NCBI GenBank assembly: GCA_964606485.1
Contig: CAZSGP010000001.1
Span: 289,085 to 353,084, forward strand
Length of the DNA stretch: 64,000 nt
Source: an uncultured Planctomycetia bacterium
GTDB taxonomy: Bacteria; Omnitrophota; Gorgyraeia; 2-02-FULL-51-18
Reading direction: 5' to 3'
Shown here: positions 1,675 to 18,085 of the stretch, piece by piece
Position numbering within the stretch: the first letter of the stretch is position 1
Layout: each line of letters opens with the position of its first letter
The notes under the pieces: model-generated
The model's database searches: none
Seen by the model: the letters and a program-made list of their open reading frames with translations, nothing else
Told to the model about the DNA's origin: nothing
Translations under genes and position numbers: made by a program

Positions 1675-1677
1675 CCT

Positions 1678-4527
1678 ATGAAAATTAATAAACGATTTGA
1701 AAACGATAGCCAGGCGCTACTGAACATTGCGACGACATTCGCGGATGCAGGAGACCACCCCAAGGCGGTGGAACACTTTGATAAGGCTGTTACCTTAACG
1801 CCCCAATCGCCAGAAATCAATTTTGCGTATGGCTCGTATCTTTTGGAGCATATTCTCCAAGATCGAAAAAGAAAGTTTTCTCTCTCAGTCCAGGGTATAG
1901 GCGAACTCAAAAAATCCGAGACGCTATTATCTGCTGCTATAGAGTTATTGAGGGAATCAGATAAGAAAAAAGAACTACGGGATGCTTTAGTGAACCGATC
2001 GACCGCTCGCATTATTTTGGACAGGTTCACCGAGGCCGAAGAAGATCTTAATTTTGCTATTGGGCTGAAAGATAATTCGCCTTTAATTTATGCAAACAGG
2101 GGTCGTCTATTTAGGATTCGCAATCGCATTGATGAAGCAATCCTTGATTTCAAGAAAGCGCTTACAGTGGGTGCAAAAAAAGATGACATCTTTCCAATGC
2201 TTGCGTCTTGTTATCTTGAGAGAGAAGACGTAAAAGTCGATGAGTTTATTGAACTTCTCAAAGAGCACTACAAGGATGAAGAGACGGTTTTTTCGGAAAC
2301 TCTTCATGCCGAAAGTCTCATCCTGAAAAAAGACCTTGATGCTGCAGAGCACTTGATTAAAAAAGCATATAAGCACTTTGGTCGCGCACCTCGAATTTTG
2401 GCAACCGAAGCCAGCTTGCAAAAGGCCAGGGGAAACACTAAAGCAGTGGAAGCTTTGCTTAAAGAGGCTGCAAAGGGGAACGGGCTCGATGAAAATATGG
2501 CGAAACTTGAGCTCGCCGTGTTTTATAAGCGTTCCAAAAAATACGATGACGCGATACCGCTTTTTGAGCAATTGGCAAGCGCCGAGCTCTTTGATCAAGT
2601 TCTTATGGACTATTTGACGTGCCTTTATAACTCTAAGCAAAATCGTCGAGAAAATATAAATAAGTGTTTGGAGATATGTAAGAACCTGAGGCAAAAGGGA
2701 CAGGAGAATGTCGGGCTCCTCGAGTTGGAAGCCAGCATTTATCAGTCTCTTGATCACCTGAAAGAAGCCTCCGAGCTTTTCTATGAGCTAACGAAGATTG
2801 AAACAAAGCAGTATCGGCATAAATTAAATTATGCGACCACTCTTATTGAAATGGGTGGCGAGAAGCTCAATGAAGGCAAAAAGCTTCTTTACGAAATTAA
2901 AGACGGGATAGTTGATAAGCAGTATTTGGTTTTACTCGGCAAGTTCTTCGCTCGAGTGGGTGACTATGAGGAAGCGATCAAGACCCTTTATAAGGCTCTC
3001 GAATTAGACTATCGCGATAGCGAAACCCAGCTTATTTATATGTATACGTTTTTGAATAGGGGTGAAAAGAAAACGCCGCTATTGGATTCGGATATCATCG
3101 TAGACGATTTTTATATTCGAATTAAAAGGAATGGAAGGGAAGAGACGTTTTTTATCTCCTCTGACCCAAAGGCGAATTATTCAAAGCACGAAATATATAA
3201 AGATTCAGGGCTCGGAAAACAGCTTTTTGGTAAGCAAAAAGGCGAAATTATAAAAATTAAGACAAATGACATTGAAGACATCTACGAGGTTCTTGAGATT
3301 AAGAGTAAATATGTTAGGGCGTTTCAAGAAATTCTCGACAACTTTAATAAAGACTTCCCTGATGATAAAACTCTTCAAATGGTTAAAGCCGATCCCGCCG
3401 AGATTGCAAATCGACTTCGTTTGATGTCCGAGCGCCAGGAGCAAATTGTCGAAATGTATAAGGCTAAGCAGCTACCTATTAACCTTCTTTCAAATCTTCT
3501 AAATAGGGATATTTTTGTTACTTGGGTGGGGTTAGTTACTCAAAAAGGCTTGAGGTTGTATTGTGCATCTGGAAGCGTAGAAGAGCAGCGAAATGAACAG
3601 GACTTGGTTGAGAATTCGGATACGGTCGTTATTGATCTTATATCGCTTTTGACCCTTTCTGTATTAGAGCTACTCGATTTGCCTCAGAAGGTTTTTAAGA
3701 ATGTCTATGTTCAAAGAGCCACGGTCGATGAAATAGAGGCCCAACTACTTGAAGCAAGGGGTAGGCAAAAAGAAGGGTTTATGACACTTTTCCACCTCGA
3801 GGGTAAGACATATCGGGACGAAGTGAAACCAGAGCAAGCGCAAAAACGACTTGAGTATTTGGAGAAGCTTCGAGCCGCGGTCCAGAAAATGACGATTATG
3901 GGGTTGGACAGTCCTCTCGAAGACTCTCTCACCGAAAAAGAGAAGGTATACGGCCGATCTTACATTCACTTAATCCAGCTTTGTTTGGATAGAAAGATTC
4001 CATTATTTAGTGACGACTTTTTGCTTCGTGGTTTATTGTTTAACGAATACAAAATAAGAGGCTTTAGTATTCAAAACTTCATGGTGATAGCTGGTAAGAA
4101 GGGTCTTTTAAGCGAGATGGAGTATTGCGATAAGATCATCGAGTTATCAAAGAGGAATTACCACTACTTGTCGGTTTCAGCGCAGATGCTATTTCATGCG
4201 GTTGAAAAAAATCACTTTCAGCCCCGAAACGCAGATTTTGATGCGCTTATTGAAACTCTCGCTGAAGACACAACAATTGAGTCGCTGATTACTGTATTGA
4301 GTGATTTTATTCGGTTAATTTATATCGATAAATTGCCGCCAGATGTGAAGGCGAGATATCTGGACGTAATTCTTAACAGGTTATCGGCTGGTGGAAATCC
4401 AGAGCACATCAAGCTATTCCTGAAAGCGCTCCAAAATAAATTGCAATTCGTTGAGTTTTTAATGCCTCAGATTCAGAAAGAAATCCAGAGATGGCTGAAA
4501 TCAAGGGGAGCCTTGATAAGAGTCTGA
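1678..4527 (+). CDS. Large TPR-repeat protein (949 aa) with a possible PIN-like C-terminal region
   Basis: About 450 aa of N-terminal TPR repeats (AVEHFDKAVTL, ILDFKKALTV and others). The C-terminus has the acidic signature TVVIDLISLL ... IPLFSDDFLLRG, which resembles PIN-domain motifs. No P-loop. Confidence 0.6.
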   Translation: MKINKRFENDSQALLNIATTFADAGDHPKAVEHFDKAVTLTPQSPEINFAYGSYLLEHILQDRKRKFSLSVQGIGELKKSETLLSAAIELLRESDKKKELRDALVNRSTARIILDRFTEAEEDLNFAIGLKDNSPLIYANRGRLFRIRNRIDEAILDFKKALTVGAKKDDIFPMLASCYLEREDVKVDEFIELLKEHYKDEETVFSETLHAESLILKKDLDAAEHLIKKAYKHFGRAPRILATEASLQKARGNTKAVEALLKEAAKGNGLDENMAKLELAVFYKRSKKYDDAIPLFEQLASAELFDQVLMDYLTCLYNSKQNRRENINKCLEICKNLRQKGQENVGLLELEASIYQSLDHLKEASELFYELTKIETKQYRHKLNYATTLIEMGGEKLNEGKKLLYEIKDGIVDKQYLVLLGKFFARVGDYEEAIKTLYKALELDYRDSETQLIYMYTFLNRGEKKTPLLDSDIIVDDFYIRIKRNGREETFFISSDPKANYSKHEIYKDSGLGKQLFGKQKGEIIKIKTNDIEDIYEVLEIKSKYVRAFQEILDNFNKDFPDDKTLQMVKADPAEIANRLRLMSERQEQIVEMYKAKQLPINLLSNLLNRDIFVTWVGLVTQKGLRLYCASGSVEEQRNEQDLVENSDTVVIDLISLLTLSVLELLDLPQKVFKNVYVQRATVDEIEAQLLEARGRQKEGFMTLFHLEGKTYRDEVKPEQAQKRLEYLEKLRAAVQKMTIMGLDSPLEDSLTEKEKVYGRSYIHLIQLCLDRKIPLFSDDFLLRGLLFNEYKIRGFSIQNFMVIAGKKGLLSEMEYCDKIIELSKRNYHYLSVSAQMLFHAVEKNHFQPRNADFDALIETLAEDTTIESLITVLSDFIRLIYIDKLPPDVKARYLDVILNRLSAGGNPEHIKLFLKALQNKLQFVEFLMPQIQKEIQRWLKSRGALIRV

Positions 4528-4534
4528 CAGCCTC

Positions 4535-4759
4535 TTACTTAATTCCCTTAAAAAAATCTGATAGATTGAGCTTAAAAGCTTCAGCCACTTTGGCGATAGT
4601 GTGAATTTTAGGGTAGAAGCGAGGCGTTTTGGCCTCAAGACGCTGGACGCTTTTATAGTCCAGACCCGCTTTTTCAGCCAACTCCTGCTGGGTGAGATCC
4701 TTTTTCGCTCGTAGTTCTCGGATACGGTAACAAATCTGCTTACGGAGGTCTTTTGCCAT
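4535..4759 (-). CDS. XRE-family (Cro/CI-type) HTH transcriptional regulator
   Basis: 74 aa with the HTH_3 signature LTQQELAEKAGLDYKSVQRLE. It is convergent with the upstream TPR operon and divergent from the rightward element genes. Confidence 0.85.
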   Translation of the reverse strand: MAKDLRKQICYRIRELRAKKDLTQQELAEKAGLDYKSVQRLEAKTPRFYPKIHTIAKVAEAFKLNLSDFFKGIK

Positions 4760-4776
4760 AGAATCAGTATCTCAGA

Positions 4777-4796
4777 CGGTGTCATAAAAGACACCG
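4777..4796. promoter_or_regulatory. Perfect 7-6-7 inverted repeat (CGGTGTC-ATAAAA-GACACCG), a candidate operator for the XRE regulator
   Basis: The palindrome lies 18-37 nt upstream of the XRE start codon on the minus strand. Confidence 0.35.
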
Positions 4797-4942
4797 CACG
4801 CGTGCCCTATTTATATGGTATACTTATAGAGGGTATAAAAACCCTCCTCGACAAGGGCTAACCTGTGGTAACGCAGGGGCGCAAAGCCACAAGTCCTAAT
4901 ACGGACAGTTGGGCTACCGAGAAAGACGAGTGAATAAGTGCG

Positions 4943-4974
4943 CCCATTTCTCATTATCGAGGGATGGGTTTTTT
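4943..4974 (+). terminator. Intrinsic terminator-like hairpin followed by a T6 run
   Basis: Arms CCCATTTCTC / GAGGGATGGG give a 10-bp stem with 2 G-U pairs and a 6-nt loop, then TTTTTT. No upstream plus-strand CDS exists, so it may terminate a small RNA or attenuate the leader of the 5021 gene. Confidence 0.45.
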
Positions 4975-5020
4975 ACTGGGTGATTGATACAACGAAGAAA
5001 GCCAAGCTGGAGGATAAATT

Positions 5021-6343
5021 ATGAAAAAAATCTCACTTAAATATAATTTGCTTCCTGTTCTATTATTGGTGCTCTTCGTATTTTTACAGGTTAGGTTAGC
5101 CGGGGCTGATGAGGTGCCTGCCAAAAACTATTTTGGAAAATATGTATCAGCCGACGGTAATGGCGGTGTCGTTGAAAGCCTGGAACGCGTCGACCTTGTA
5201 AATAAGGATATATCAAAACTCAACCCACAGCATATCTATGTCGATGACAGAGGTATGCCGCTTGCGTTTTTTAATGAAAAAGGTCAGACGATCTCAAAAG
5301 ACGATATGTTACAAGGAAGCCGTCAAAGGATGGAGCGGGAACAGCAGATGGGTGGCTCGGGAACCTTTTTTAAGGATGGGTATGTTCGGGACAGTGACTA
5401 TTATGGACGGCTTACAGGTTATAACCCAAACAACAATAATCCGGGCGATGACAGCGTCTATAAGGGGCGGAATACTGCCCAATCACCGAACGTGGTTCAA
5501 TCCCAAGGGAAGCTAGAAGTAAGTGGACCATCTAGCCCTTCTGTTGGAACTGGGCTTCTTCCAACCCCAAAAACACTTAGCGGTGAAACAGTCGGCTTAA
5601 GCGGCGGCACACCCATTGACCCTAGCAAGTTAAGCGCCGATAGTATACCCGATGGTTTTGTCTTGATGAACGGCGCTTTGGTAAAGGACCCCGTCATTCG
5701 AGAAAAAGCCGTAATGCCCAAAGAACAGTGGCCTGCCGACCGTATGGAGAAATCATGGCAAAGCAACGCAGAGGGTCTTTTGAAAGTCAGAGAACAGGCC
5801 AAGGTAGACGGTCGTGAGCTTACAACAGACGAGCTTCGTCTGGCCGCTTGCCGCCTTGATATTCAAAACAGGGTGTATGTGAATCCCAACATCAAGCTAA
5901 CGCCTGAAGAAATCGAAAAAGAAGCCACAAAACAAGTCCAAGAATGGAAGCGAGACAATCTCTACATGCTGTCTGATGGCAAGATCGCCGGTTTTGGACC
6001 GGGTGGGGTCGAGGGATGGGTTCAGGAGCAAAGAGAAAACCGAGAAAAGTTTATTCGAGAAACCAGAGCTTCAGTGGAAAAAATGGCCAAAGGCGTTACG
6101 CCGGGATTGACGCCAGAGGGAAAAGAACGTGAAGATAAAGTAAGGGCCGAGACGCTTAAAAACCAAGCTGATTTTGAAAAAAGTATGCGGGAAGATTCCG
6201 AGAAGAAAATTGTACAGTTATTGAAGGATACTGGCGTAGCAGACCCCGGGCGGTCCAATTCAACGGTATCAAAGCCAGCGCTCGTGGCCTACGCATTGCC
6301 AAAGATGCTGGTGTCATACGAGAAAGCGAGCGATAAGAAATGA
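5021..6343 (+). CDS. Secreted hypothetical protein (cargo gene)
   Basis: N-terminal signal peptide MKKISLKYNLLPVLLLVLFVFLQVRLAGA. GGAGG ribosome-binding site upstream. Low-complexity Pro/Gly/Ser central region. No identifiable domain. Confidence 0.6.
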   Translation: MKKISLKYNLLPVLLLVLFVFLQVRLAGADEVPAKNYFGKYVSADGNGGVVESLERVDLVNKDISKLNPQHIYVDDRGMPLAFFNEKGQTISKDDMLQGSRQRMEREQQMGGSGTFFKDGYVRDSDYYGRLTGYNPNNNNPGDDSVYKGRNTAQSPNVVQSQGKLEVSGPSSPSVGTGLLPTPKTLSGETVGLSGGTPIDPSKLSADSIPDGFVLMNGALVKDPVIREKAVMPKEQWPADRMEKSWQSNAEGLLKVREQAKVDGRELTTDELRLAACRLDIQNRVYVNPNIKLTPEEIEKEATKQVQEWKRDNLYMLSDGKIAGFGPGGVEGWVQEQRENREKFIRETRASVEKMAKGVTPGLTPEGKEREDKVRAETLKNQADFEKSMREDSEKKIVQLLKDTGVADPGRSNSTVSKPALVAYALPKMLVSYEKASDKK

Positions 6344-6669
6344 ATACAAACATTCAAAGCCAAAAAGCCGATAAGCCAACGACGATCCACCTGACACAAA
6401 TAAAGCCAGGGATCACCAAAGAAGAACGTGGCAGGTTGGCGAAGAAGCTGGCCAATGTGCTATGGGCAGATTCTGCCAATCGCTTTCCCACCAACCAATA
6501 ATCTTAATAGATGTAAGTCGCGATTTACTTGAAGCCAAAATGATTATGGTTATTTTCTTTATCCGAGTAAAATAAGGCAAAATAGAAAACCTAATAAAAT
6601 GTTGCGTTTAAAGAATAGCGCGTTGTATTTTTTGATTGTATTGATGATCATGATGAGAGGTGATGAAGC

Positions 6670-7572
6670 GTGGCGAAGGATCAGGATGAAATACGCCAAC
6701 ATGAGGTTTTAATTGCCCTTGATAAATGGGAGTTTATAAGGATAGGCTCTCGATATCGTGGTGATTACAAAAATATTTGGCTGCCTTTTCTGAACAAGAT
6801 TAAAAATTTCCGCTTAAAGAAAGTTGATGGGCGGATAGTCAAAATTAAGCCAATAGACGACAGAGAATTTCAAAAGGTTAGCTCTCATTTTTGGAACCAA
6901 TATGGAATTGTGGAACCGGTTTGGCCTGGAATTTGTGCTTTTAATAGGAAAGGGGAGATTAACGAACAAAATATAAAAGTAATATGTAACGCTTTTGCGG
7001 ACATACCGGTCATTAGGCATGAGGATTATCTGGGTTTCGGCGGTGAGGTGCTATTCAAAAAAAACCATAGAAAAGTGACAAAAAATAAAGAATCATTCTT
7101 CATTGGGCGTGTCACCGCGCAGGACATGAGAGAACTAAAAACGTTAAAGGTTTCAGTTGATAAGACAATGAGCAAAGAACGCATTGATTACCATAACAGA
7201 AGACTCATTAGCCAGTGGAAGATCTTAATAAATCGACAGAATGAATTAAAGAGAGACGAAAAAGCGGGAGTGAGAACTATTCTTAAAAAACATCAAGACA
7301 AGATGCGGATATTCCTGCGCAGGCACAAAACGGAAATCAGGTATCGATTTAGAGATCACGCTGAGTACAGACGGGCATATCGTATCGTTGAACGGATCAA
7401 GCGAATGAAGAAGTATAGAGGGACTGAATCAGCTGTAACCATCGCAACCCTATACTTAAACCCAGGAGTTTCAGTCTCATCAAGAACATGGATCAATTGT
7501 TTTGATGATACTTGTAGAAAGTACAGAATGGGCTGTCGGTATATTGGCGGAGACTATATGAGTATAAAATGA
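6670..7572 (+). CDS. Hypothetical highly basic protein
   Basis: 300 aa, rich in Arg/Lys (RYRFRDHAEYRRAYRIVERIKRMKKYR). GTG start with an AGAGG ribosome-binding site. Followed by a strong terminator. Confidence 0.5.
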   Translation: MAKDQDEIRQHEVLIALDKWEFIRIGSRYRGDYKNIWLPFLNKIKNFRLKKVDGRIVKIKPIDDREFQKVSSHFWNQYGIVEPVWPGICAFNRKGEINEQNIKVICNAFADIPVIRHEDYLGFGGEVLFKKNHRKVTKNKESFFIGRVTAQDMRELKTLKVSVDKTMSKERIDYHNRRLISQWKILINRQNELKRDEKAGVRTILKKHQDKMRIFLRRHKTEIRYRFRDHAEYRRAYRIVERIKRMKKYRGTESAVTIATLYLNPGVSVSSRTWINCFDDTCRKYRMGCRYIGGDYMSIK

Positions 7573-7628
7573 TTACTTTATTTCCAACCGTCACAAATTG
7601 ATTAAAATATAGAACGTACTAAGATCGG

Positions 7629-7664
7629 ACCTGTAGGAAGAAAAATTCATCCTACAGGTTTTTT
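7629..7664 (+). terminator. Rho-independent terminator
   Basis: ACCTGTAGGA ... TCCTACAGGT forms a 10-bp stem with an 11-nt loop and is followed by TTTTTT. Confidence 0.6.
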
Positions 7665-7698
7665 GTGTTTCAAGGCCAAACTAAGAATCGAGAATTTG

Positions 7699-7992
7699 AT
7701 GACCGATGAAATAATGATGTCAATCGCATCCCTCATATCAGAAGTTTCCGTCACGCCGGTTCGTCCAAAAAATACCCTCGTAGCTTTTTGTTCGTTCGTC
7801 TATCGCAAGGAATTTTATTTAGGCGATATCGCGCTTCATATTGATTTGTCCGGCGATGGTTATCGACTCGCGTATCCCGAAAAAACCCTATTTAATGGCA
7901 CACGCTGCCAAATTATTTTCCCTCTCTCATCAAATATTGGCGACGCTATCAAAAATGTCATCGTGACCAAATACGAGGGAATGATCCGATGA
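7699..7992 (+). CDS. Small hypothetical protein
   Basis: The track ORF at 7663 starts inside the terminator T-run, so the internal ATG at 7699 is a more plausible start. No motif. Confidence 0.25.
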   Translation: MTDEIMMSIASLISEVSVTPVRPKNTLVAFCSFVYRKEFYLGDIALHIDLSGDGYRLAYPEKTLFNGTRCQIIFPLSSNIGDAIKNVIVTKYEGMIR

Positions 7993-8035: not shown

Positions 8036-10798
8036 TTGTCTTGTGTTCTTGGAGAGCAAATGAACGATTTTGAAGAAATTAAAAGCCGGGTCGTCCTGGC
8101 GGACCTGATCCATGAAGAAACGGGTCTTGCGCTTAAAAAAGCAGGAAGCAATACCCTTGGTCTTCACGAGTGTCCCTTCTGCGGAGGTCACGACTGCTTC
8201 CGGATTCAGATTAAGAATCAATTTTATAAATGCTTCCAATGTGATGAAGGGGGCGACGTATTCAGTTTTATTAAAAAAAGGCATGAGTTTAATTCACGAT
8301 TTGAAGCTCTTAAATATGTGTCCAAAAAGATCGGCTGTGAACTAAAAAACAAGAAGGAGTGCGAAGGGTATCTGCGGACACAGGAAGCAAAGCGTCATTC
8401 GGCTGAATACTACAGCCATAACTTGCTAGAGCGACTTAAAAGCCGGTCCATCCGCTACGCTGGTGGGCAGGATGACAAGGTGTTCGTCTCCACAGTTCTT
8501 GAGTATCAAACCGTGGTTCGTAAGCATGATCCTTCGGTGTTAAGAAAGCTCAAAATAGGATATGCGGATGGCGGGCTATTCGATTATCTGATCGGCAAGG
8601 GGTTTAAGAAACAAGAAATTCAGAAATCCGGACTTTTGAACTCGGCGGGGAAGGATCTTTTCAAAGATACGTATGTTTATCCGCAGTATGTGGATGGCGA
8701 GATGTCACATTTCACGCAAAAAGACCCGCTTAAAAAGCAGAAACATCAGGTAAAGAAGGAGTATTGGGATAAAAGGTGGTTTGGCTTTAACCAAGATTCG
8801 CTGGATGGGAAGGAAGTTATTCTCTGCGAGGGTGAGAATGACGTCTTGTCAGTTGTTGGTAAGGGGGGAGCCTCGGCGGCCATTGCGTTTATTGGGTCGA
8901 TATCTAATGAGCAACTTGAAGCGCTAGCCCCTCATATAAAAGGAAAGATCGCATATACGTGTTTTGACAGCGACGACACCGGCAAGAAATATGAAAAGTT
9001 AGTTTCAGGACGCTATATCGGGGATGAATATGATATACGGCTTGTGAATTTCGAGGGCGCAAAAGACATCGACGAAATTCTCAAGGCCTCACAAGATCCT
9101 AAAACACTACTTGCTTCCCTAATATCTAATGCAGTCAAACCTCCCGAAATTACATCTCCAATTGAAATCCGGAACGGACGCTATTTCGTCCAAAGACGAA
9201 GGGGCAGTGTCCAAATCACCAATTTCACTATCCGTATAAAAAACCGCATTGTGTCGAATGGCAATTCCGTGCGAGAAGTTGCGTTTGTAGACATTAACGG
9301 CGAGGAGACGCGGCCTTTCATACTCGAACCCGAGCACATGGTCACTCCGTCAAGGTTCAAAGAATTTTGTCTTTCAAAGGGAAACTTTGTTTTTGAGGGG
9401 AACGGAACCGATCTAGCCGAGATTTGGAAATATGAAATGGCCAAAGATAGAGGCCGAAAAATAATTCAGCCAGACCATATCGGCTTCCTGCAGGAGTTTC
9501 AATTATGGCTCTTTGGAAATGCCCTTTTCAAAGATGGAAAAGTAATTACAAGTGACGATGATGGGGTCTTTTGGATTGGTAATACCGGATTTAAACCAGT
9601 CTCACTTTCAATAAAAGATGAGGATCAGGCGGTCTTACCAGAACTACGTATTGAAGAGCCTGAAAAATCAAGAGAGCTTCTGAGGTTCATTGTTCAGAAA
9701 TCAAAGGAAAATATTGGAAATCACAACTCATCGTTAGCGCTTGGATATATCAAGGCGGTGATTTACAGCAGAGAAATCTTTAATCGTTTTAAATTTTTTC
9801 CTTTTCTATTTATCTATGGAAAATTTCAGTGCGGAAAAAATACGTTCGCCAGATTCCTTCTTTGGTTTTTTGGTTTGGGTGATACTGATGGAATCAGCAT
9901 TACGGAAGCAACTCAGACAGGAATTTCAAGGAAATTAGCGTATCTGTCTTGTCTTCTCGTGTGGCTGGATGAATTTCGAAACGAAGTAAAAACTTTCAGA
10001 CTGAGCAGTTTCCTAAGAAGCGTGTATAACAAAATCACTTCAGTGAAAGGTATAAAGAGTGATTTCGGTACTCGAAACGTGCCAGTTCGAGCGGCGCTTC
10101 TTCTCTCAGGGGAGCAGCTTCCGAGTGATCCTGGACTTCGCAGCCGGTGCATTCCTATTATGTTGCGTCGCAATCAGCGCAAGGATTCCGTTCTTCATGA
10201 AATCAACAACGTCGCTTATCGACTAAGCGCCATAACCTCAATGTGGATTCTCGAGAAAACACCTGAAAAGGTGAGCGAGTTCCTCGAGAATATTGAGACC
10301 ATAAAAACGCAACTTCAAGCTGACCATCAATTCGATACCCGTCTTGCCGAAAACTATGCGGTCCCAATTGCCGGATTTCGTTCAATCGCATCCAGCGAGG
10401 AGTTCGATGAGTTTTATGAATGGGTTGTTGAGGCGGCAAAGCACGATAAAGAGGCCAAGGACGAAGACCATGTCCTTCATCAATTCCTTGAGGATATCGA
10501 AGTGCTTATCTGTAACCGGGCTGTTCCATCCGATTATTTCCAGGTAGACGATGCAGCTGGAGAAGTGAAGTTTTATTTCAACGGTCTTTATAACATGTGG
10601 GCCCGAGATTTTCGACAGCGAAAAGGGGAAGAGCCTTTTCCAAAGCGAGCAATTTTGGACCATTTTCGCGAGGAAGACTACTACATCAAATATGATCGGC
10701 CTTATATCAACGGCAGGCAATTCCATGGGCTTGTGCTCGATCTAAAGAAAGCACCCGCAGACCTTGTTTCAGCTATGCGGAACCATCCAAGCCGATGA
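8036..10798 (+). CDS. DnaG-type primase (zinc ribbon plus TOPRIM) fused to a C-terminal P-loop/helicase-like domain (P4-alpha / D5-like replication protein)
   Basis: CHC2 zinc finger CPFCGGHDCFRI...YKCFQCDEGGD. TOPRIM acidic motifs ILCEGENDVLSV and CFDSDDTGKKYE. C-terminal Walker-A-like GKFQCGKNT. Confidence 0.8.
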   Translation: MSCVLGEQMNDFEEIKSRVVLADLIHEETGLALKKAGSNTLGLHECPFCGGHDCFRIQIKNQFYKCFQCDEGGDVFSFIKKRHEFNSRFEALKYVSKKIGCELKNKKECEGYLRTQEAKRHSAEYYSHNLLERLKSRSIRYAGGQDDKVFVSTVLEYQTVVRKHDPSVLRKLKIGYADGGLFDYLIGKGFKKQEIQKSGLLNSAGKDLFKDTYVYPQYVDGEMSHFTQKDPLKKQKHQVKKEYWDKRWFGFNQDSLDGKEVILCEGENDVLSVVGKGGASAAIAFIGSISNEQLEALAPHIKGKIAYTCFDSDDTGKKYEKLVSGRYIGDEYDIRLVNFEGAKDIDEILKASQDPKTLLASLISNAVKPPEITSPIEIRNGRYFVQRRRGSVQITNFTIRIKNRIVSNGNSVREVAFVDINGEETRPFILEPEHMVTPSRFKEFCLSKGNFVFEGNGTDLAEIWKYEMAKDRGRKIIQPDHIGFLQEFQLWLFGNALFKDGKVITSDDDGVFWIGNTGFKPVSLSIKDEDQAVLPELRIEEPEKSRELLRFIVQKSKENIGNHNSSLALGYIKAVIYSREIFNRFKFFPFLFIYGKFQCGKNTFARFLLWFFGLGDTDGISITEATQTGISRKLAYLSCLLVWLDEFRNEVKTFRLSSFLRSVYNKITSVKGIKSDFGTRNVPVRAALLLSGEQLPSDPGLRSRCIPIMLRRNQRKDSVLHEINNVAYRLSAITSMWILEKTPEKVSEFLENIETIKTQLQADHQFDTRLAENYAVPIAGFRSIASSEEFDEFYEWVVEAAKHDKEAKDEDHVLHQFLEDIEVLICNRAVPSDYFQVDDAAGEVKFYFNGLYNMWARDFRQRKGEEPFPKRAILDHFREEDYYIKYDRPYINGRQFHGLVLDLKKAPADLVSAMRNHPSR

Positions 10799-10889
10799 GC
10801 GACGGTCATTTTGTCTTGTTATTTGTCTTATTTAATTACTTGTGGACTAAGAGGTTAGAGCAAACAAGTCAAAAAGACAGGAATTTCTA

Positions 10890-11489
10890 ATGGGTATTCC
10901 AATATTAAAAGGCAAGGGGGATTTGGAGGGCTTAGGCAGCCAGCCCGTGGCAAATCCCATCGACCAAGACAACGCCCTTAAGGTGATGGAAAAAGACTAT
11001 CGAGAAGCTGCCCTGCGCCTTGCCGCAGCACATAAGAGCCTTCCCGCATCTGTTCGGCCCTGGTTCATATATGAAGCACAGAAATTTGATGCGAGTATCC
11101 ATGCGGCATTGACCACAAAAAATAATGACAAACTTCAAGATGTTTTGGTGGGTTTCGAAGCGCTAATCGCAGAAGTTGTGCCGCTATCCGTGAGCGGTTG
11201 GAACGAAGATCGCGAGTGGATCTTTCCATTTTGGAGTGATCGATTCAATTGTGAGGTCTGGTTTGTTTATTCAGAAAAGGAAGCAGGTTTTTTAATGCAG
11301 AAAGGTGTCTCAAGAGGGTTTATTTTTACCGAAGACGAAATCAAAAAATTATCAAAACTCAATCAATCCAGTTTCGAGTCCATTGATCTGATCAAAAAAA
11401 CTTTTAATGCCACTTTGATTGGTATTAAAGATGACCGGTCAGAATCAACGCAAGTAGAGCCACCACCTGAAAGGGCTGGCCCGAACTAA
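10890..11489 (+). CDS. Hypothetical protein
   Basis: 199-aa ORF inside the replication module. No motif. Confidence 0.45.
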   Translation: MGIPILKGKGDLEGLGSQPVANPIDQDNALKVMEKDYREAALRLAAAHKSLPASVRPWFIYEAQKFDASIHAALTTKNNDKLQDVLVGFEALIAEVVPLSVSGWNEDREWIFPFWSDRFNCEVWFVYSEKEAGFLMQKGVSRGFIFTEDEIKKLSKLNQSSFESIDLIKKTFNATLIGIKDDRSESTQVEPPPERAGPN

Positions 11490-11574
11490 TTAAAGGTGAC
11501 GAAAGCGTATTGAAAGGGAAAAAAGGAAGTAAATGGTTACTACTGTTAAATCAGAAAATCGAAGGAGATAAGAC

Positions 11575-12060
11575 ATGGGTAGATTTATTGGGAAAAAAGC
11601 AAAGTTGGTTGAGATTAAGGTTCCAACTGGGAAGAAAATCAAAGGGATAGTCACGGAAATCAAGGCCTCTGACCTGTATCCAAATTCGCTCAACATAAAA
11701 ATTGAGTGTCCGGAGCATACGGCCTGGTCGGAAGACGGACAGAAGCAATTTGTAAAAATTGCTTACTTCAGTTTTCCGATGGATTGGTCTCCAAAAAATA
11801 AAGCGGGTAAGTTTTACCTGGCCCTAACCGGCAAATTACCAACCGGTGAAGTTGACTGGGATGAACTCCTTCTGAACCGCGAGGTTGGTGTCATCTTCAA
11901 CGACGAGTTAGATCCTAGTACAGGTGAATTCAAGGGCCAACGTGTGATATGGATCGGTAGTATGGATGGAGGCCTCAAAGCACCTGAACAAAAGGCCAAA
12001 TCACCTACTAATCCACCAAAGAAAGATGAGTCAACGTTAAGTGATGAAACACCGTTCTAA
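11575..12060 (+). CDS. Hypothetical protein, possibly SSB-like
   Basis: 161 aa. The acidic C-terminal tip ...STLSDETPF recalls the SSB tail DDDIPF. It sits between the primase and helicase genes. GGAG ribosome-binding site. Confidence 0.45.
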   Translation: MGRFIGKKAKLVEIKVPTGKKIKGIVTEIKASDLYPNSLNIKIECPEHTAWSEDGQKQFVKIAYFSFPMDWSPKNKAGKFYLALTGKLPTGEVDWDELLLNREVGVIFNDELDPSTGEFKGQRVIWIGSMDGGLKAPEQKAKSPTNPPKKDESTLSDETPF

Positions 12061-12073
12061 GCATGTTCTGTTT

Positions 12074-12129
12074 AAACTCGGGCTGTTGTTACATGCTATT
12101 GAGCCCGCAATGACAGTCCGAGTTTTTTT
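12074..12129 (+). terminator. Rho-independent terminator with an unusually large loop
   Basis: A 12-bp stem AAACTCGGGCTG / CAGTCCGAGTTT (one G-U) encloses a 28-nt loop and is followed by T7. Confidence 0.5.
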
Positions 12130-12144
12130 AACTTTCAATAGGAG

Positions 12145-13479
12145 ATGATTGTTATGCCAGAAATTTCGATCGCTGCCTTGTCACTTCCGCCAGATTTTGA
12201 AGAGAGTCAAGAATTTCGGCAGGGCTACGAAATTGTCGAGAAAACCTCAAGGTCTCTATATATATCGGGTGTTCCGGGTGCTGGTAAGTCAACCTGGCTT
12301 ACATCGTTTCGGAAGAATACTAAAAAGAACCTTGTCGTTCTGACGCCAACGGGCATTGCAGCGGTCAATGTTCAAGGGCAAACCATCCACAGTTTTTTTA
12401 AGTTCCCTCATTCTTTAATCCAAAAAGAAGATATCCGACGTCATCCAACAAATGGACTTTTCAAGAAGCTCGATCTTCTGACCATAGACGAGGTCTCTAT
12501 GGTCAGGCCAGATTTGTTGGACGCAGTCGATTACTCACTCCGGCTTAACCGGAATTGTTTTAATCTCCCGTTCGGAGGTGTGCAGATTCTTTTAATCGGC
12601 GACCTCTATCAGCTTCCGCCTGTGCTGGACAAGGAGCTGGCCAAACATTATGCAGAGTTATATGAAACCCGTTACTTTTTCAGTGCAAAGGTGTTTGAGG
12701 AAGCCAAATTTCACTCATTTACGCTGACAAAAAATTTCAGGCAGAAGGACGAGAAGTTTATGTCCCTGCTCAACAGGATCAGAAACAACAACGTTAGCGA
12801 CGATGATCTGAGGTTACTGAATACACGGGTCGACCCCGAACTTGCTGAAGTGTGGAGGGACAGCATTAGGCTCGTGCCCACAAACGCCGCCGCAGACGCT
12901 GTAAACCATTCGCGCTTGTCAAAACTACCGGGCGAAGAATTTCTTTATCAAGCAACGATTAAGGGTGAATATGACCGCCGGTCATATCCTGCTGACGAAA
13001 ATCTAATACTCAAAGTCGGAGCCCAAGTTTTGATGATCAAGAATGACCCCGGAGGGAGATGGGTAAATGGGAGTATCGGGCGGGTTGTTGAATTGACACC
13101 CGACGGAATCAAGGCACAGATTGATCATGGAATATATGACGTACATCCCGTGAAATGGGACAAGATTGTATATGAGCATGGCGGTTCGTCAGGAGGCATT
13201 ACTCCCGAAGTAGTTGGTACATTTGAACAGTTTCCGGTCAAACTCGCCTGGTCGATTACGGTTCACAAAAGTCAGGGCCTTACTCTTGATAAAGTTATCG
13301 TGGATTTAGACCGTGGGGCTTTTGATCACGGGCAAACTTATGTTGCCCTTTCTCGATGCAGGACGCTTGAAGGACTAGTCCTGAAGCGTCCTGTTAAGCG
13401 CAGCGACATCATTTTTGATAGACGTATTGACCGAATTTCAGGACTGTTCATTCCGAGTGAAATAAGAAAGTTTCAATGA
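12145..13479 (+). CDS. PIF1/RecD-family ATP-dependent DNA helicase
   Basis: Walker A GVPGAGKST. Motif II LTIDEVSMV. C-terminal UvrD_C_2-like region TVHKSQGLTLDKV. Confidence 0.85.
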   Translation: MIVMPEISIAALSLPPDFEESQEFRQGYEIVEKTSRSLYISGVPGAGKSTWLTSFRKNTKKNLVVLTPTGIAAVNVQGQTIHSFFKFPHSLIQKEDIRRHPTNGLFKKLDLLTIDEVSMVRPDLLDAVDYSLRLNRNCFNLPFGGVQILLIGDLYQLPPVLDKELAKHYAELYETRYFFSAKVFEEAKFHSFTLTKNFRQKDEKFMSLLNRIRNNNVSDDDLRLLNTRVDPELAEVWRDSIRLVPTNAAADAVNHSRLSKLPGEEFLYQATIKGEYDRRSYPADENLILKVGAQVLMIKNDPGGRWVNGSIGRVVELTPDGIKAQIDHGIYDVHPVKWDKIVYEHGGSSGGITPEVVGTFEQFPVKLAWSITVHKSQGLTLDKVIVDLDRGAFDHGQTYVALSRCRTLEGLVLKRPVKRSDIIFDRRIDRISGLFIPSEIRKFQ

Positions 13480-13506: not shown

Positions 13507-14217
13507 ATGAAAGTCTTTATTTTGGATGATAAGAATTCGTATGTTTATGACGGTAGCCGCAACAGACAATTTATTGAATTGGCACCATGCTCAGATTGCA
13601 AAACTTTTCTCTGGAGCGATGATGAGCGCACATTGATTCAGGACGCTGTTCAATTTGTATGGGAACTATCAGATTTTGAACTTGATGTATGGCATGCTCT
13701 GTCAGCTACATACTGCTCAAAAGATGCTAATGATGCTATACGCTTAGGCAACCTGCTCAATCCGCTTCGCGATTTATTCGAATACGACAGTGAGGAAATA
13801 GGGTCGCTTCGCGATGTATTGCAACTTGCTGCATTTGCTGGACCCATAAGCATCAACATTGAAAAAGCTAAAATAGTTTATAAAAAAATTCGAAAATTTG
13901 TTGTGCACATCCACAACAAGCACCGAGATGAGAAGGGTAAAGTCCTGGCCCCATCAGACTGGTTTAATAATGGTTCACTTGACTGGATTGATCTTGATAG
14001 ACTGCTAAGTTTTTTGCCTGGAGTCCGGGGGAAGTCCGAATCGGAAATTGCGGCGTACTTGAAAGAAGAATGGGAGAAGCTTGATAGATGCAAGAAGTGC
14101 AACCAAATTCTTGCAATTGGTCAAGACGAAGGGAAGTTAAATGGTATCTGCTACAAATGCGAACCTCAGCAGATCTTTGAAAACAGCACGGATGGAAAAC
14201 AGGTACCTAGCCAATGA
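13507..14217 (+). CDS. Hypothetical protein with a C-terminal zinc ribbon
   Basis: CKKCNQ...CYKCEP Cys4 motif. No other recognisable domain. Confidence 0.45.
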   Translation: MKVFILDDKNSYVYDGSRNRQFIELAPCSDCKTFLWSDDERTLIQDAVQFVWELSDFELDVWHALSATYCSKDANDAIRLGNLLNPLRDLFEYDSEEIGSLRDVLQLAAFAGPISINIEKAKIVYKKIRKFVVHIHNKHRDEKGKVLAPSDWFNNGSLDWIDLDRLLSFLPGVRGKSESEIAAYLKEEWEKLDRCKKCNQILAIGQDEGKLNGICYKCEPQQIFENSTDGKQVPSQ

Positions 14218-14250
14218 ACTTTTTCAGCGCTTATTATAATCAAAAGAATC

Positions 14251-14502
14251 ATGATGAAATCAGTGACCCATGCGAGTATATTAACGGAGAGAATGCTAAA
14301 CAACCCACTGACAACATACGAAGCGGCAAAGCGCGCAGGTTTCGCAGTTCCTTATATTCGCCAGCTATTGGCGAAAGGCAAACTGAAGGGTCGGTATGCA
14401 AAGATCAACGACTCGAAAGCTATCTGGCTTATCGACAGCGCTTCTTTGAAGAAATATCTCTCTTCTTCTCGCCAACGTGGTCCCAAACCAAAGAAAAAAT
14501 AG
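14251..14502 (+). CDS. Small HTH DNA-binding protein, excisionase/RDF-like (recombination directionality factor)
   Basis: 83 aa. Its short HTH (TTYEAAKRAGFAVPYIRQLL) and basic C-terminal tail resemble excisionase/AlpA-type proteins, and it lies just upstream of the recombinase genes. Preferred over the overlapping 14214..14621 ORF. Confidence 0.55.
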   Translation: MMKSVTHASILTERMLNNPLTTYEAAKRAGFAVPYIRQLLAKGKLKGRYAKINDSKAIWLIDSASLKKYLSSSRQRGPKPKKK

Positions 14503-14775
14503 CCACTAGCTGTATCAAGCTCGTCCACGGCATACGCCTTGTATTAAATTCCTACTTCGTATATAATATAATCCAAAAGAATAGTGCCCATTGTTGCGAG
14601 GATGCCAATGGTTACGCTTGAAATATCTGTTGTCGAAACCATTCTCATAAGCGAGCCGGATGATTTTCAAATCTTAGTTTGGTGTCTCGCTGACCTAAAC
14701 TCATTTTTTTCGGTAATAGCAGCTTTATCAAATGGGGTTATTCAATACGCAGAAGAACAGGGGATTCTTAGCTAA

Positions 14776-15171
14776 ATGGGAGGGTTCAAGATGTCAGAAA
14801 ATAAAAGAATAGTGGCGTGTTATGCGAGGGTTGGTAGAAATTCAATAGAGCAAAGCGGTCACTTTAAAGAAGGTGAAGCGCTGCTTAATCAAATCGAGAA
14901 ATGTAGTTCATTTATTGCTCAAAACAGAACATGGCAAGCTGGGCCAATTTATATGGATATAGCTAGCACAGGCGATTTAGAGAGATCCGGGTATCAGCAG
15001 ATGTTGAAAGACGCGTGGAGTGGAAAATTTCATGTATTGGTTGTTACCGACTTCGATCGCCTTACGAGAAACCTCAGTGAAGGGATGCGTATGGTTCGAG
15101 CTTTTACTAAAGGCCTTGGGATAAAGATTTCGTTCGTTGCTCGGTCTCAAAGGAAGAAGAACAGATGTTAG
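14776..15171 (+). CDS. Resolvase/invertase N-terminal-domain paralogue lacking the nucleophile serine
   Basis: It aligns to the N-terminus of the downstream LSR (SGKFHVLVVTDFDRLTRN versus AGKFQVLVIWKIDRFMRN). The catalytic motif YxRVSTxxQ is replaced by YARVGRNSIEQ, with Ser changed to Gly. It overlaps the LSR start by 7 nt. Confidence 0.6.
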   Translation: MGGFKMSENKRIVACYARVGRNSIEQSGHFKEGEALLNQIEKCSSFIAQNRTWQAGPIYMDIASTGDLERSGYQQMLKDAWSGKFHVLVVTDFDRLTRNLSEGMRMVRAFTKGLGIKISFVARSQRKKNRC

Positions 15172-16811
15172 GAAAAGTAATAAAAAGAATAGCGGCAATA
15201 TATATTCGCGTTTCGACAGAGGACCAAAAGCGAGAAGGTCACTCGCTTGACACTCAACTTGAAGATTGCCAAGGCTTGATACGCCGGGACGAATCGTTAG
15301 TCGAGGGGACAATTTATAAAGAAGTTGAGAGTGGGCATAAGATCGATCGTGAGCAATATCAACAGATGTTGCGAGATGCCCAAGCGGGTAAGTTCCAGGT
15401 GCTAGTGATTTGGAAAATCGACAGATTTATGCGTAATACGCTCGAAGGATTGCGTGCGGTCGAGTTCTTGATGGGGTTGGGAATCGAAATTATGTCTCCA
15501 ACAGAGTATCTAGATTTCGTTTCTGCACGCGGAAAAAGAAATATGCGGGAAGATTTGGTCGGAGCCGAATTTGAACGCGATAGGCTAATTGAGCGTGTTA
15601 TGCCTGGTATGAAAAGGGGTGTCGCGAAGGGACATTGGCAGGGTGCACGTTCTTGTTTTTACGGTTATCGTTATGACAAACGGGATAAACTTCTTATTGA
15701 GGTTCCAGAAGAAATTAAAGTAGTGAAAATTATTTATTCACTTCGTTCTCAAGGCATGGCTATTTACTCGTTATGTATGCGACTTGCAGAAATGGGGATT
15801 CGTAACAGAATGAGGCGGCTTTTTACCACCAGACAAATAGAAATTATTTTGAACCGTGCCATTTATTATGATGGGCATCTACTCTGGAATGGTGTGCGTA
15901 GCGAACAGCCCGTTATGGTCCCTATTCTTGATAAAGATATTTGGGAAAAAGTGCAGGCGGTTAATGCTGACAGAAAACAAGAGACGAAAAATGTTTCGCC
16001 GGGCCGGGCAACTTCAAGTTATGTGCTACAAGGGGTTCTAAAGTGCGCTCTTTGCGGCGGCAATATGGTTGGTCAGCGTCGACACTCCAATCGTCCAAAA
16101 AATATAAAAGTTCCTTGGTATGTTTGCGGCACATATATTCAACGAACTCGCAAGGCATGTCCTGGGCAATGCGTTCGGGCTGATGCTGTTCATGAATTAG
16201 CATTCGATATTCTTAAAAAGATATTACGGAATCCACAGTTGATCGAGTTTACACGAGACAACTTGAAAAAAATGTTTGCGCATAGTTTTCCCCATTTGTC
16301 GCGTCGAGTTAATGATCTGCAAGCCAATTTACAACGATTAAAAAGGGAAGAAGCCAAATGCCGTGATGCATATTACCGCGAGGCACTGACATTGCAGCAA
16401 TTCAAAAATGAAAATTATCGTCTTTTGGAGGAACAGAGAGCTGCCGAAGAAGAATCAAGAGATCTGCAGACGAAGCTAAGTGGAGCGGTTGCCTACGAAG
16501 GAAAGATCGACCAGGTCTTTTCGTTATTGAGCAATTTTGAGCCCGTATGGAAAAAGATGGACCCTGTCCAACAAAGAGTAGTTTACCGGGGGATATTTAA
16601 TACGTTCTTTACAGACAGCAGAAAATACAGCAGGGAGTACAAAGTTAAGGATTTTTCACTTAAGGAACCTTTTAAAAGCTGGTATTATGATCAAGCGTGG
16701 GGAGGACCGATTCTGATCACAGAAGCGGGTGGGGCCCTTTTAATCGATAACCAAATTAAAAACAAAGACTTATGCGAAAAGTTTATATTTGCACCTTCGG
16801 ATGTCAAATGA
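15165..16811 (+). CDS. Large serine recombinase (phage-type integrase)
   Basis: Catalytic motif AAIYIRVSTEDQ. Recombinase domain. Zinc ribbon CALCGGNM...YVCGTY. Coiled-coil region. 548 aa. Its 3' end overlaps the miaB start by 40 nt. Confidence 0.9.
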   Translation: MLGKVIKRIAAIYIRVSTEDQKREGHSLDTQLEDCQGLIRRDESLVEGTIYKEVESGHKIDREQYQQMLRDAQAGKFQVLVIWKIDRFMRNTLEGLRAVEFLMGLGIEIMSPTEYLDFVSARGKRNMREDLVGAEFERDRLIERVMPGMKRGVAKGHWQGARSCFYGYRYDKRDKLLIEVPEEIKVVKIIYSLRSQGMAIYSLCMRLAEMGIRNRMRRLFTTRQIEIILNRAIYYDGHLLWNGVRSEQPVMVPILDKDIWEKVQAVNADRKQETKNVSPGRATSSYVLQGVLKCALCGGNMVGQRRHSNRPKNIKVPWYVCGTYIQRTRKACPGQCVRADAVHELAFDILKKILRNPQLIEFTRDNLKKMFAHSFPHLSRRVNDLQANLQRLKREEAKCRDAYYREALTLQQFKNENYRLLEEQRAAEEESRDLQTKLSGAVAYEGKIDQVFSLLSNFEPVWKKMDPVQQRVVYRGIFNTFFTDSRKYSREYKVKDFSLKEPFKSWYYDQAWGGPILITEAGGALLIDNQIKNKDLCEKFIFAPSDVK

Positions 16812-18085
16812 ACGAACGGGACACCGAAGCCGTCGAAGGCTTGATGCTGGATAAGGGTTACGAAAAAACAGCTGAAATTGAGCAGGCGGATCTCATTTTA
16901 TACAACACCTGCAGTGTGCGTGATCACGCCGAGCAAAAAATATTCGGACGTATGGGGCATTTTAGAAAACTAAAAGAAAATAACCCTGAACTTGTAGTGG
17001 GAATCATGGGCTGCATGGCCCAGGAGCACGCAGGAGATTTTTTTAAAAAGAATCCTCATATTGACCTCGTCTGCGGCCCAGGAAATTTAAAACAAATTCC
17101 AGCTCTTGTTGATGAAGTGCGCTCCGGAAAAAAAGCCCGGCTTGCCGTCGACCGGCTAGACGAAGAATACTCGCTCGAGGATGCGCGCTACCGATCGGGA
17201 AACCCCAAAGCGCTTGTCACGATCATGAAGGGTTGCGATCACAAGTGCACCTACTGCATCGTCCCGTTTGTGAGGGGAGTCGAGCGCTCGCGCTCCTCTG
17301 AAAGCATTTTAAATGAAATCAAAGATTTGGAAGCGCGCGGGTTTAAAGATGTGATGCTGCTTGGACAAAATGTGAATTCGTATGGAAAGGGATTGGACGA
17401 GCAAATTGATTTTGCGGGGTTACTTGAGAAAATTCAATTGCACGCGCCAAAAATTCCGCGACTTCGGTTTATCACGAGCCACCCCAAAGATGCACACACC
17501 CGGCTTTTTACGGCCATGCGCGATCTGCCCATGGTCTGCGGGCATTTGCATTTGCCGGTGCAGGCGGGGTCTGATTTTATTTTGCGCCGCATGAAGCGTG
17601 AGCACACGCGCCAGTGGTATTTGGATCAGATTGAAGAGTATCGAAGGCTTGTGCCGGAGGGGACGCTTACGACAGATTTGATTGTTGGATTTCCGGGCGA
17701 AACCGAGAAAGATTTTTTAGACACGGTGGACCTTGCCGAAAAAGCACAGTTTGACGCAGCCTACATTTTTACGTATTCGCCGCGGCCGGGAACGCCTGCG
17801 CTCAAATTAGAAGACGACGTGCCGTTTGAGGAAAAAGACCGGCGCTTGCATCATCTTTTAGCGGTGCAGCGGGCGATGGCGCTTAAAATCAATCAGGGAC
17901 TTATTGGAAAAACATTCGAAGTGCTCTTTGAATTTAAAACCCGGCGCGATGAAAGTCGTTTTTCAGGGCGCACCCGCGGTTTTAAGCGTGTAGTTGTCTC
18001 CTCAGAGGCTGATTTGACGGGGCTTTTAAGGGCTGTTAAGATCACGGGTGCTGCGGATGAAACATTGCTTGGAGAACTCATTTAA
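16772..18085 (+). CDS. miaB: tRNA-2-methylthio-N6-dimethylallyladenosine synthase (MiaB)
   Basis: MTTase N-terminal TFGCQMNE. Radical-SAM CDHKCTYC. TRAM C-terminus. Confidence 0.95.
   Translation: MRKVYICTFGCQMNERDTEAVEGLMLDKGYEKTAEIEQADLILYNTCSVRDHAEQKIFGRMGHFRKLKENNPELVVGIMGCMAQEHAGDFFKKNPHIDLVCGPGNLKQIPALVDEVRSGKKARLAVDRLDEEYSLEDARYRSGNPKALVTIMKGCDHKCTYCIVPFVRGVERSRSSESILNEIKDLEARGFKDVMLLGQNVNSYGKGLDEQIDFAGLLEKIQLHAPKIPRLRFITSHPKDAHTRLFTAMRDLPMVCGHLHLPVQAGSDFILRRMKREHTRQWYLDQIEEYRRLVPEGTLTTDLIVGFPGETEKDFLDTVDLAEKAQFDAAYIFTYSPRPGTPALKLEDDVPFEEKDRRLHHLLAVQRAMALKINQGLIGKTFEVLFEFKTRRDESRFSGRTRGFKRVVVSSEADLTGLLRAVKITGAADETLLGELI

Follow-up and report, generated by a model that had tools for sequence, protein, structure and literature searches.

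Large serine recombinases (LSRs) are major genome-engineering tools, and all known control of these enzymes by recombination directionality factors (RDFs) is exerted through their C-terminal DNA-binding and coiled-coil region. None of the known RDFs is related to the recombinase, whose second DNA-binding domain (DBD2) and coiled coil they bind (PMC5814800, PMC12286644). Here we describe an LSR integration module that carries an accessory gene of a kind for which we found no earlier description, located in a 64,000-nt stretch of DNA from an uncultured Planctomycetia bacterium (NCBI GenBank assembly GCA_964606485.1, contig CAZSGP010000001.1, positions 289,085 to 353,084 of the forward strand; hereafter the window, numbered from its first nucleotide). 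A short open reading frame (ORF) immediately upstream of the LSR gene encodes a stand-alone serine-recombinase catalytic core devoid of the nucleophile serine. The evidence that this short gene is real and selected is strong. We tentatively take its product to be a non-catalytic, co-translated partner of the LSR that modulates, and probably restrains, recombination, a reading whose chances we place just short of even.

The short protein has the fold of the LSR catalytic domains of Pfam family PF00239, such as the N-terminal domain of the TP901-1 integrase (3BVP) and the Clostridioides difficile transposon recombinase 3G13, and it shares with them clear homology and the invariant Tyr/Arg/Asp/Ser/Arg residues. 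It differs in having neither the nucleophile serine nor helix E and in being a free-standing polypeptide of 126 aa without DNA-binding domains. The RDFs phiC31 gp3, Bxb1 gp47 and SPbeta SprB are likewise products of small accessory genes carried on the element of the LSR and are presumed to act by protein-protein contact; they are, however, regulated separately from the integrase, whereas the short protein is a catalytic-domain paralogue whose gene appears to be translationally coupled to the LSR gene.

Other described systems resemble the locus in part. Tn5 Inh and the P-element KP repressor are truncated-paralogue inhibitors of transposases; the gene of the full-length enzyme yields them as alternative products, and they retain the oligomerization region. 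The short protein, too, is a truncated, non-functional form of an enzyme whose gene lies at the same locus, and it would be expected to interfere with or titrate that enzyme, but it is the product of a separate, anciently diverged gene (~40% identity) and lacks the main dimerization helix. Set against Tn5 Inh, it is predicted to be devoid of catalysis and of a DNA-binding domain; as to the oligomerization surface, helix E is absent and helix D is relaxed. CcrA and CcrB of SCCmec are adjacent, co-expressed serine-recombinase paralogues thought to work together; unlike the short protein, both are full-length LSRs, and both keep the catalytic serine. NCBIfam reports a weak, sub-threshold similarity of the short protein to CcrA and CcrB. 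In the Tn3/gamma-delta res synaptosome, the resolvase subunits at sites II and III are used architecturally rather than catalytically; there, a single full-length, DNA-bound protein supplies both these subunits and the catalytic ones, whereas the short protein is the product of a separate, serine-less and truncated gene. Full-text literature searches returned no inactive, truncated or serine-less resolvase paralogue tied to LSRs, and a survey paper on RDFs offered no precedent, in agreement with the initial annotation of this locus, which was made from the sequence alone and whose author had not seen such an LSR accessory factor described.

A serine-recombinase catalytic core without its nucleophile

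The longest frame of the short ORF spans positions 14776..15171 on the forward strand and encodes 131 aa counted from its first ATG. The real start is probably the ATG at 14791, which yields a protein of 126 aa (MSENK...; 14791..15171), because a Shine-Dalgarno sequence read from the DNA (GGGAGGG, 14778..14784, forward strand) lies 6 nt upstream of it, gene callers in three sources pick the 126-aa start and ATG 14776 is not kept in two relatives. These two loci (L001 and L003) have TTG in place of the latter codon, and the GGGAGGG motif also precedes the short ORF in L001, L003 and L039.

The adjacent LSR gene (15165..16811, forward strand) is intact and encodes a protein of 548 aa with the motif YIRVSTEDQ and a coiled-coil region, which Pfam assigns to Resolvase PF00239 (E = 1.1e-27 over the whole 145-position profile), Recombinase PF07508 (E = 2.8e-9) and Zn_ribbon_recom PF13408 (E = 7.5e-11); we regard it as the source of the duplicated core. 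BLASTP aligns the short protein to residues 7-109 of this LSR with 46 identities over 109 positions (42%, 82.8 bits, E = 8e-24), and PF00239 matches the short protein with E = 7.4e-15 and 55.8 bits (cut-off 23.3). Both results bear out the proposal of the initial annotation that the gene encodes a paralogue of the LSR catalytic domain. The profile match runs from position 2 to position 101 of 145, which indicates that the part corresponding to helix E is missing from the short protein. Pfam detects no domain besides PF00239 in it, and 126 aa is too short to accommodate a DNA-binding domain.

The AlphaFold2 (AF2) model of the short protein (predicted local distance difference test score, pLDDT, 84.7; predicted template modeling score, pTM, 0.79) follows the canonical β1-αA-β2-αB-β3-αD-β4 order. 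Gly15 directly follows strand β1, residues 120-126 are disordered and the disordered C-terminal tail is basic. The top Foldseek matches of the model in the PDB (32 at E <= 0.001) are serine-recombinase catalytic domains only, among them 3g13, TP901-1 3bvp, the IS607-type 6dgc, Sin and the SPbeta, Bxb1 and phiC31 integrases. The polypeptide stops about 10 residues past the last core strand, which corresponds to the first turn of the would-be helix E. Helix E, the main dimer helix of serine recombinases, belongs to their dimer/tetramer interface and contacts the DNA minor groove, and helix D forms part of the synaptic interface.

The short protein reads YARVGRNSIEQ at the motif that is YIRVSTEDQ in the LSR. 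When it is aligned with 141 homologues, 124 of the 142 sequences have Ser in the Gly15 column, and two diverged short lineages have Asn at this position, so that the loss of the catalytic serine noted in the initial annotation extends beyond the window. The Ser-to-Gly change therefore stands, whereas the insertion described along with it vanishes when an LSR other than that of the element serves as reference: YARVGRNSIEQ is aligned by HMMER without gaps to YCRVSTDSEDQ of the C. difficile LSR 3G13, and in this alignment Gly15 occupies the nucleophile position and Ser18 that of the second, non-catalytic serine of STDSEEQ-type LSRs. The other active-site positions are retained, namely Y11 (138 of 142 sequences), R13 (137), D56 (137), R65 (140), R90 (140) and R93 (141), together with S59, in a column that holds Ser or Thr in 133 of 142, and an intact DRLxR motif. 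We take Y11, R13, D56, S59, R65, R90 and R93 to be the equivalents of gamma-delta resolvase Y6, R8, D36, S39, R45, R68 and R71. Since the nucleophile, helix E and a DNA-binding domain are all absent, the short protein should be unable to cut or exchange DNA and, judging from these features, cannot act as a recombinase.

The short protein could nonetheless still be an enzyme if Ser18, or Thr or Cys elsewhere, had taken over as a displaced nucleophile, a suggestion that is compatible with the retention of the rest of the active site and with the presence of Ser, Thr or Cys three residues past the canonical position in the three short lineages. We find this barely credible, because the column is variable (Glu 31, Ser 29, Asn 17 and Asp 15 of 142), Ser18 aligns with a non-catalytic serine and the AF2 model places it within a short helix instead of the loop that follows β1. 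Moreover, nothing would position a protein without helix E or a DNA-binding domain on DNA. The variability of this position, which is Thr or Cys in the two diverged short lineages (L039 and L040), also makes it unlikely that the downstream serine of the RNS triplet, considered in the initial annotation, is the nucleophile.

The short gene is under purifying selection

A close-relative search of a set of 5.8 billion proteins retrieved only four members of the window lineage, the window's own protein and three others at 85-88% identity. All four are 124-129 aa long and carry YARVGRNS(I/M)EQ, and the contigs of the relatives have the same layout, with the LSR start overlapping the stop of the short ORF. 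The ratio of non-synonymous to synonymous substitution rates (dN/dS) of the short gene is 0.10-0.23 in all six pairs of the four relatives, at dS values of 0.26-0.50 (Nei-Gojobori, 117 codons), which is comparable to the 0.04-0.25 that these contigs give for the N-terminal part of the LSR. Non-synonymous changes are significantly depleted in each of the six pairs (Fisher p between 7.5e-5 and 5.5e-11). The short ORF is intact in all seven loci in which we have seen it.

Diverged relatives point to one old duplication

We extended the search with a deep profile search of 1.84 billion representatives, which are the 50% clusters of ~15 billion proteins. Only seven matches fell below 1e-10. Apart from the protein's own cluster, the best of them are two short proteins, P0005 (125 aa, E = 6.7e-17, motif YVRINRNTIGQ) and P0007 (110 aa, E = 9.1e-15, motif YARVNQNCGEH), and an LSR of 558 aa, P0006 (E = 1.6e-16, motif YIRVSTEDQ), in which the serine is present. 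P0005 and P0007 have Asn at the nucleophile column and end at the same point as the window protein, and both are encoded directly upstream of an LSR gene. At locus L039, a short ORF (4540-4917) overlaps the gene of a 551-aa LSR (4905-6560), and at L040 a short ORF (5735-6067) likewise overlaps that of a 551-aa LSR (6064-7719).

The three short lineages are 34-43% identical to one another and 34-43% identical to any LSR N-domain, and none is closer to its own LSR, whereas the LSR N-domains of these loci are 60-68% identical to one another. Neighbor-joining trees (200 bootstraps) recover the short proteins as monophyletic in 88% of replicates and the four LSRs in 100%. The monophyly of the short proteins suggests a single old partial duplication of the 5' end of an LSR gene, and their equal distance from all LSRs, their own included, suggests that it was not followed by gene conversion; a recent duplication or gene conversion was rejected on the same grounds. 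Synonymous sites among the three lineages are long saturated.

The short proteins and the LSRs differ in where they are conserved. In the nucleophile loop, only one of 10 positions is invariant among the short lineages versus seven of 10 among the LSRs, and helix D, the least constrained element after this loop, has two invariant positions of 14 versus nine of 14. The D..AS....R loop, helix B and the β3-DRLxR segment are comparatively conserved among the short lineages. After the duplication, the short proteins would have evolved faster and yet remained constrained, with the loss of constraint falling mainly on the nucleophile loop and helix D.

The truncation, the loss of the catalytic serine and the rarity of the family could also befit a decaying duplication remnant, and one locus (L043) indeed holds a plainly truncated LSR fragment of 170 aa. 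Such decay is largely refuted, and we judge it very improbable, given the purifying selection, the intact ORF and identical truncation point in three saturated lineages and their monophyly. The pseudogene remnant contemplated in the initial annotation is thus not borne out, as the gene is constrained at the dN/dS reported above and its position is kept across lineages that are only 34-43% identical.

The short family is known only from metagenomic contigs. A scan of genome contigs with the LSR returned only two relatives, at 28-29% identity, and a metagenome scan with the alignment of the short proteins returned generic resolvases and LSRs only, none in the tandem arrangement. No match was found in viral contigs, and phage and plasmid collections yielded generic matches at 29-38% identity only, without a close relative.

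The short gene overlaps the start of the LSR gene

The LSR start codon (ATG, 15165-15167) and the stop codon of the short ORF (TAG, 15169-15171) overlap by 7 nt in the string ATGTTAG, which confirms the directly upstream and overlapping arrangement given in the initial annotation. A Shine-Dalgarno-like sequence of the LSR, AAGGAAGAAG (15150-15159), sits within the 3' end of the short ORF. The junction (15150..15171, forward strand), as read from the sequence and from the overlapping junctions of relatives, has a geometry expected for translational coupling. In seven of seven loci the short gene lies immediately upstream of the LSR gene and overlaps its start, by 1-20 nt (1 nt in L002, 4 in L040, 7 in L001, 13 in L039 and 20 in L003), and both the length of the overlap and the sequence of the C-terminal tail of the short ORF differ among loci. 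No terminator-like site is present on the forward strand between 13400 and 17000, and the promoter and terminator counts are at the level of shuffled sequence.

We considered a programmed frameshift that would join the core to the LSR and rejected it, since the overlaps vary from 1 to 20 nt, the sequence shows no slippery site and L003 has the two genes in a different relative frame.

The conserved start/stop overlaps and the location of the LSR Shine-Dalgarno sequence inside the short ORF are also what one would expect if the short ORF were a leader in which termination and reinitiation set the level of the LSR and the peptide itself had little or no function. We regard this as decidedly unlikely: a leader would not hold a dN/dS of 0.10-0.23 over 117 codons, nor would it keep a fold and seven family-invariant residues at 34-43% identity. 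Coupling and a function of the protein are, in any case, not mutually exclusive.

A possible role as a partner of the LSR

In the scenario that we propose, a single partial tandem duplication, confined to the 5' end of the LSR gene that the element itself carries, would have placed a copy between a conserved small ORF and the LSR; purifying selection would since have maintained this copy in a small clade of integrative elements. The short core would be co-transcribed and translationally coupled with the LSR, which means that it would be made whenever the LSR is. It would tune recombination by binding either the LSR itself, on helix E or the catalytic domain, or the complex of the LSR with DNA. 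A core with an empty helix-E groove could, speculatively, dock on helix E of the LSR. Both the physical contact with the LSR and the direction of the effect are inferred.

The most plausible effect would be that of a brake on an integrase that needs continuous transcription. We favor a brake because the miaB-like gene abutting the element downstream of the LSR appears to have lost its own promoter region and would have to be read from inside the element. Its original upstream region would be displaced by ~16 kb or more and transcription into miaB possibly proceeds via the LSR operon, a read-through that would favor damping of the integrase. Co-production with the LSR would make the short core unsuited to serve as a directional switch and fits a constitutive partner better. 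By analogy, truncated paralogues that restrain transposases, such as Tn5 Inh, provide a further reason to consider a brake.

Several observations weigh against such a partner. The family is tiny, with three clusters at 50% identity among the 1.84 billion representatives. Helix E, the canonical dimerization element, is absent in all three lineages, which are cut exactly before it, and helix D is poorly conserved among the short proteins, so that the classical oligomer interfaces are not obviously kept. The LSR of locus L041, which belongs to the same clade, manages without a short core. Finally, the retained active-site arginines are not accounted for by a pure protein-binding role or by any simple binding model. 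The mixed dimers with the integrase that the initial annotation envisaged are accordingly doubtful in the canonical sense, since all lineages end before helix E and helix D has relaxed (two invariant positions of 14, versus nine of 14 in the LSRs).

If the partner proposal is correct, the dead core would reveal a second control surface on LSRs, located on the catalytic domain or helix E, and would provide a compact, genetically encodable LSR modulator as well as an example of a bacterial pseudo-enzyme that regulates its active paralogue. The hypothesis is directly testable with a three-gene cassette, formed by the conserved small ORF, the short gene and the LSR gene, and with the 5' end of miaB as the probable target.

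Serine-less cores at other loci

A serine-less core also occurs next to an LSR outside the window family. Locus L043 encodes P0062, a protein of 124 aa with the motif YARTACPDKQ, in which Ala occupies the nucleophile column and the chain ends right after the last core strand. The gene lies 57 nt upstream of that of a 539-aa LSR, to which P0062 is 43% identical, and a second contig encodes an 89% identical version of the same length and with the same Ala (P0162). The array at L043 (647-5016) comprises the 124-aa short core, the 539-aa LSR, the 170-aa truncated LSR fragment, in which the serine is present, and a 532-aa LSR. P0062 groups with the window family in only 4.5% of bootstraps, which suggests that the Ser-to-Ala core of L043 arose independently.

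Cores without serine and helix E could form an unrecognized class of LSR accessory subunits that evolved at least twice, through partial duplication of the integrase gene. To control activity or direction, they would dock on helix E or the catalytic domain of the integrase, or use the Arg pocket to reach the site of cleaved DNA, rather than contact DBD2 and the coiled coil as all known RDFs do. We advance this generalization with some reserve, as possible though more doubtful than probable.

Further nucleophile-less cores were observed in other arrangements. P0009 (218 aa) contains tandem cores with the motifs YIRTN and YARAS and P0049 (276 aa) tandem cores with YVRVS and YARIG, one core being serine-less in each. 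P0083 is another short core without the serine, and P0020 (L044) and P0060 (L042) are orphan serine-less short cores without an adjacent LSR. Nucleophile-less resolvase cores may represent a wider, unstudied phenomenon.

The orphans P0020 and P0060, having no neighboring LSR, raise the question of whether the window protein acts independently of its own LSR, as a decoy or inhibitor of competing recombinases at the same miaB site (exclusion) or as a phosphate- or nucleic-acid-binding module that uses the Arg pocket. The retention of R13, R65, R90, R93, D56 and S59 while helix D relaxed would suit such a role. We nevertheless consider it unlikely, because genes of the window family are found only overlapping an LSR start, in all seven loci, and because the short protein has no DNA-binding domain and is matched by no PADLOC defense model.

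Small genes upstream of the short core

The three-gene cassette opens with a conserved ORF of 55 aa (...ADLNSFFSVIAALSNGVIQYAEEQGILS; 14608..14775, forward strand), which precedes the short core in the window and in L001, L003, L039 and L040. Homologues of 55-79 aa are located at 4286-4525 in L039, 5551-5730 in L040 and 1268-1456 in L041. The ORF is as well conserved as the LSR; its versions in the different lineages are 55% identical and share the near-invariant block ADL..(F/L)FSV.AAL..G..QYAEE.G.L, and its ratio of non-synonymous to synonymous differences per site (pN/pS) is 0.14. It has no family match, and only eight such proteins, 50-100% identical to the window copy, are present among the 5.8 billion.

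At L041, which encodes P0006, the closest LSR without a short core, the homologous small ORF lies directly upstream of the LSR gene (hhalign probability 91%, E = 1e-6). On the P0161 contig, a gene that encodes at least 248 aa directly follows the small ORF and overlaps it. That the small ORF adjoins the LSR in L041 and the next gene in P0161 suggests an ancestral unit made up of the small ORF and the LSR. The dead core, on this sequence comparison, appears to have been inserted between them in a subclade. The 55-aa protein may be a cofactor of the LSR or an RDF of this LSR clade.

Farther upstream, a 135-aa ORF at 14214-14621 (forward strand), predicted by the gene callers of three sources, overlaps an 83-aa frame at 14251-14502 (forward strand). 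Across 14214-14621 in the window, L001 and L003, pN/pS is ~0.85 in the called frame versus 0.23-0.36 in the +1 frame, and the 135-aa ORF is probably a mis-called gene, the real one being 14251-14502. The 83-aa product resembles HTH_17 (helix-turn-helix; E = 2.1e-4) and the excisionase family TIGR01764 (E = 8.8e-4), both below the curated cut-offs, and is a candidate for a conventional Xis-like protein or regulator.

These neighbors bear on whether the short protein could itself be an RDF that binds the LSR and switches it to attL x attR excision. Its gene resembles those of the known RDFs, proteins that share no common fold (PMC11795197), in its small size, its place beside the LSR and its lineage specificity, and it is conserved under selection. 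Known RDFs work on DBD2 and the coiled coil and not via a copy of the catalytic domain (PMC12286644, PMC5814800). Coupling to the integrase, moreover, implies presence at integration too, which would defeat directionality; the sequence features of the short gene (the 7-nt overlap, the lack of a forward-strand terminator and the overlaps in seven loci) speak against the separable expression of RDFs. A related LSR, in L041, has the 55-aa ORF but no short core, and an HTH_17/excisionase-like gene lies 290 nt upstream of the short gene. In phiRv1, moreover, Xis sets a precedent, as an RDF of the HTH type that partners a serine integrase. An RDF function of the short protein hence seems rather improbable to us. 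Of the two effects that the initial annotation put forward, damping corresponds to the brake discussed above, whereas a role in directionality would be conjecture; directly upstream, the 55-aa ORF and the HTH_17 ORF are two further small genes that could be accessory to the LSR.

The element and its probable integration site

A miaB-like gene (UPF0004 and radical SAM domains; 16772..18085, forward strand) abuts the element, and its start overlaps the LSR stop by 40 nt (16772-16811). The same 40-nt overlap is found in L040 (7680-7719), whose host flanks differ, and the DNA across the LSR/miaB junction is highly conserved between the window and L040. The location of the LSR stop 40 nt inside miaB in two elements with different host flanks indicates that the 5' end of miaB is probably the integration target, which, on this comparison, at least two elements of the clade would occupy. 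The GC content steps from ~0.43 in the element, on the left, to ~0.48 in the host near 16.8 kb. Within the window we located no left end of the element.

An exact 14-nt direct repeat, CAAATGAACGAACG (1127-1140 and 16805-16818), was examined as a candidate attachment site and is probably coincidental, as its copies share no flanking similarity and chance alone would produce ~0.6 repeats of this kind over 18.5 kb. The copy at 16805-16818 lies at the LSR stop and miaB codons 12-16.

The window contains no phage structural or virion genes. The cargo at 8036-13479 (forward strand) encodes a 920-aa primase with DnaG zinc-finger and Toprim domains and a 444-aa Pif1-family helicase, which suggests a self-replicating integrative element or a satellite. 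The cargo at 601-4527 (forward strand) encodes a 949-aa protein that combines TPR, GreA/B C-terminal and PIN domains (PF20698, TPR-GreAB-C-PIN system). A 357-aa TPR protein, for which PADLOC gives a weak LmuA-like match, precedes it. This region is a probable defense or toxin module of the element. In L040, a separate small serine recombinase of 209 aa with an intact serine (YCRCSTSEK) is encoded at 2297-2926, upstream of the replication genes.

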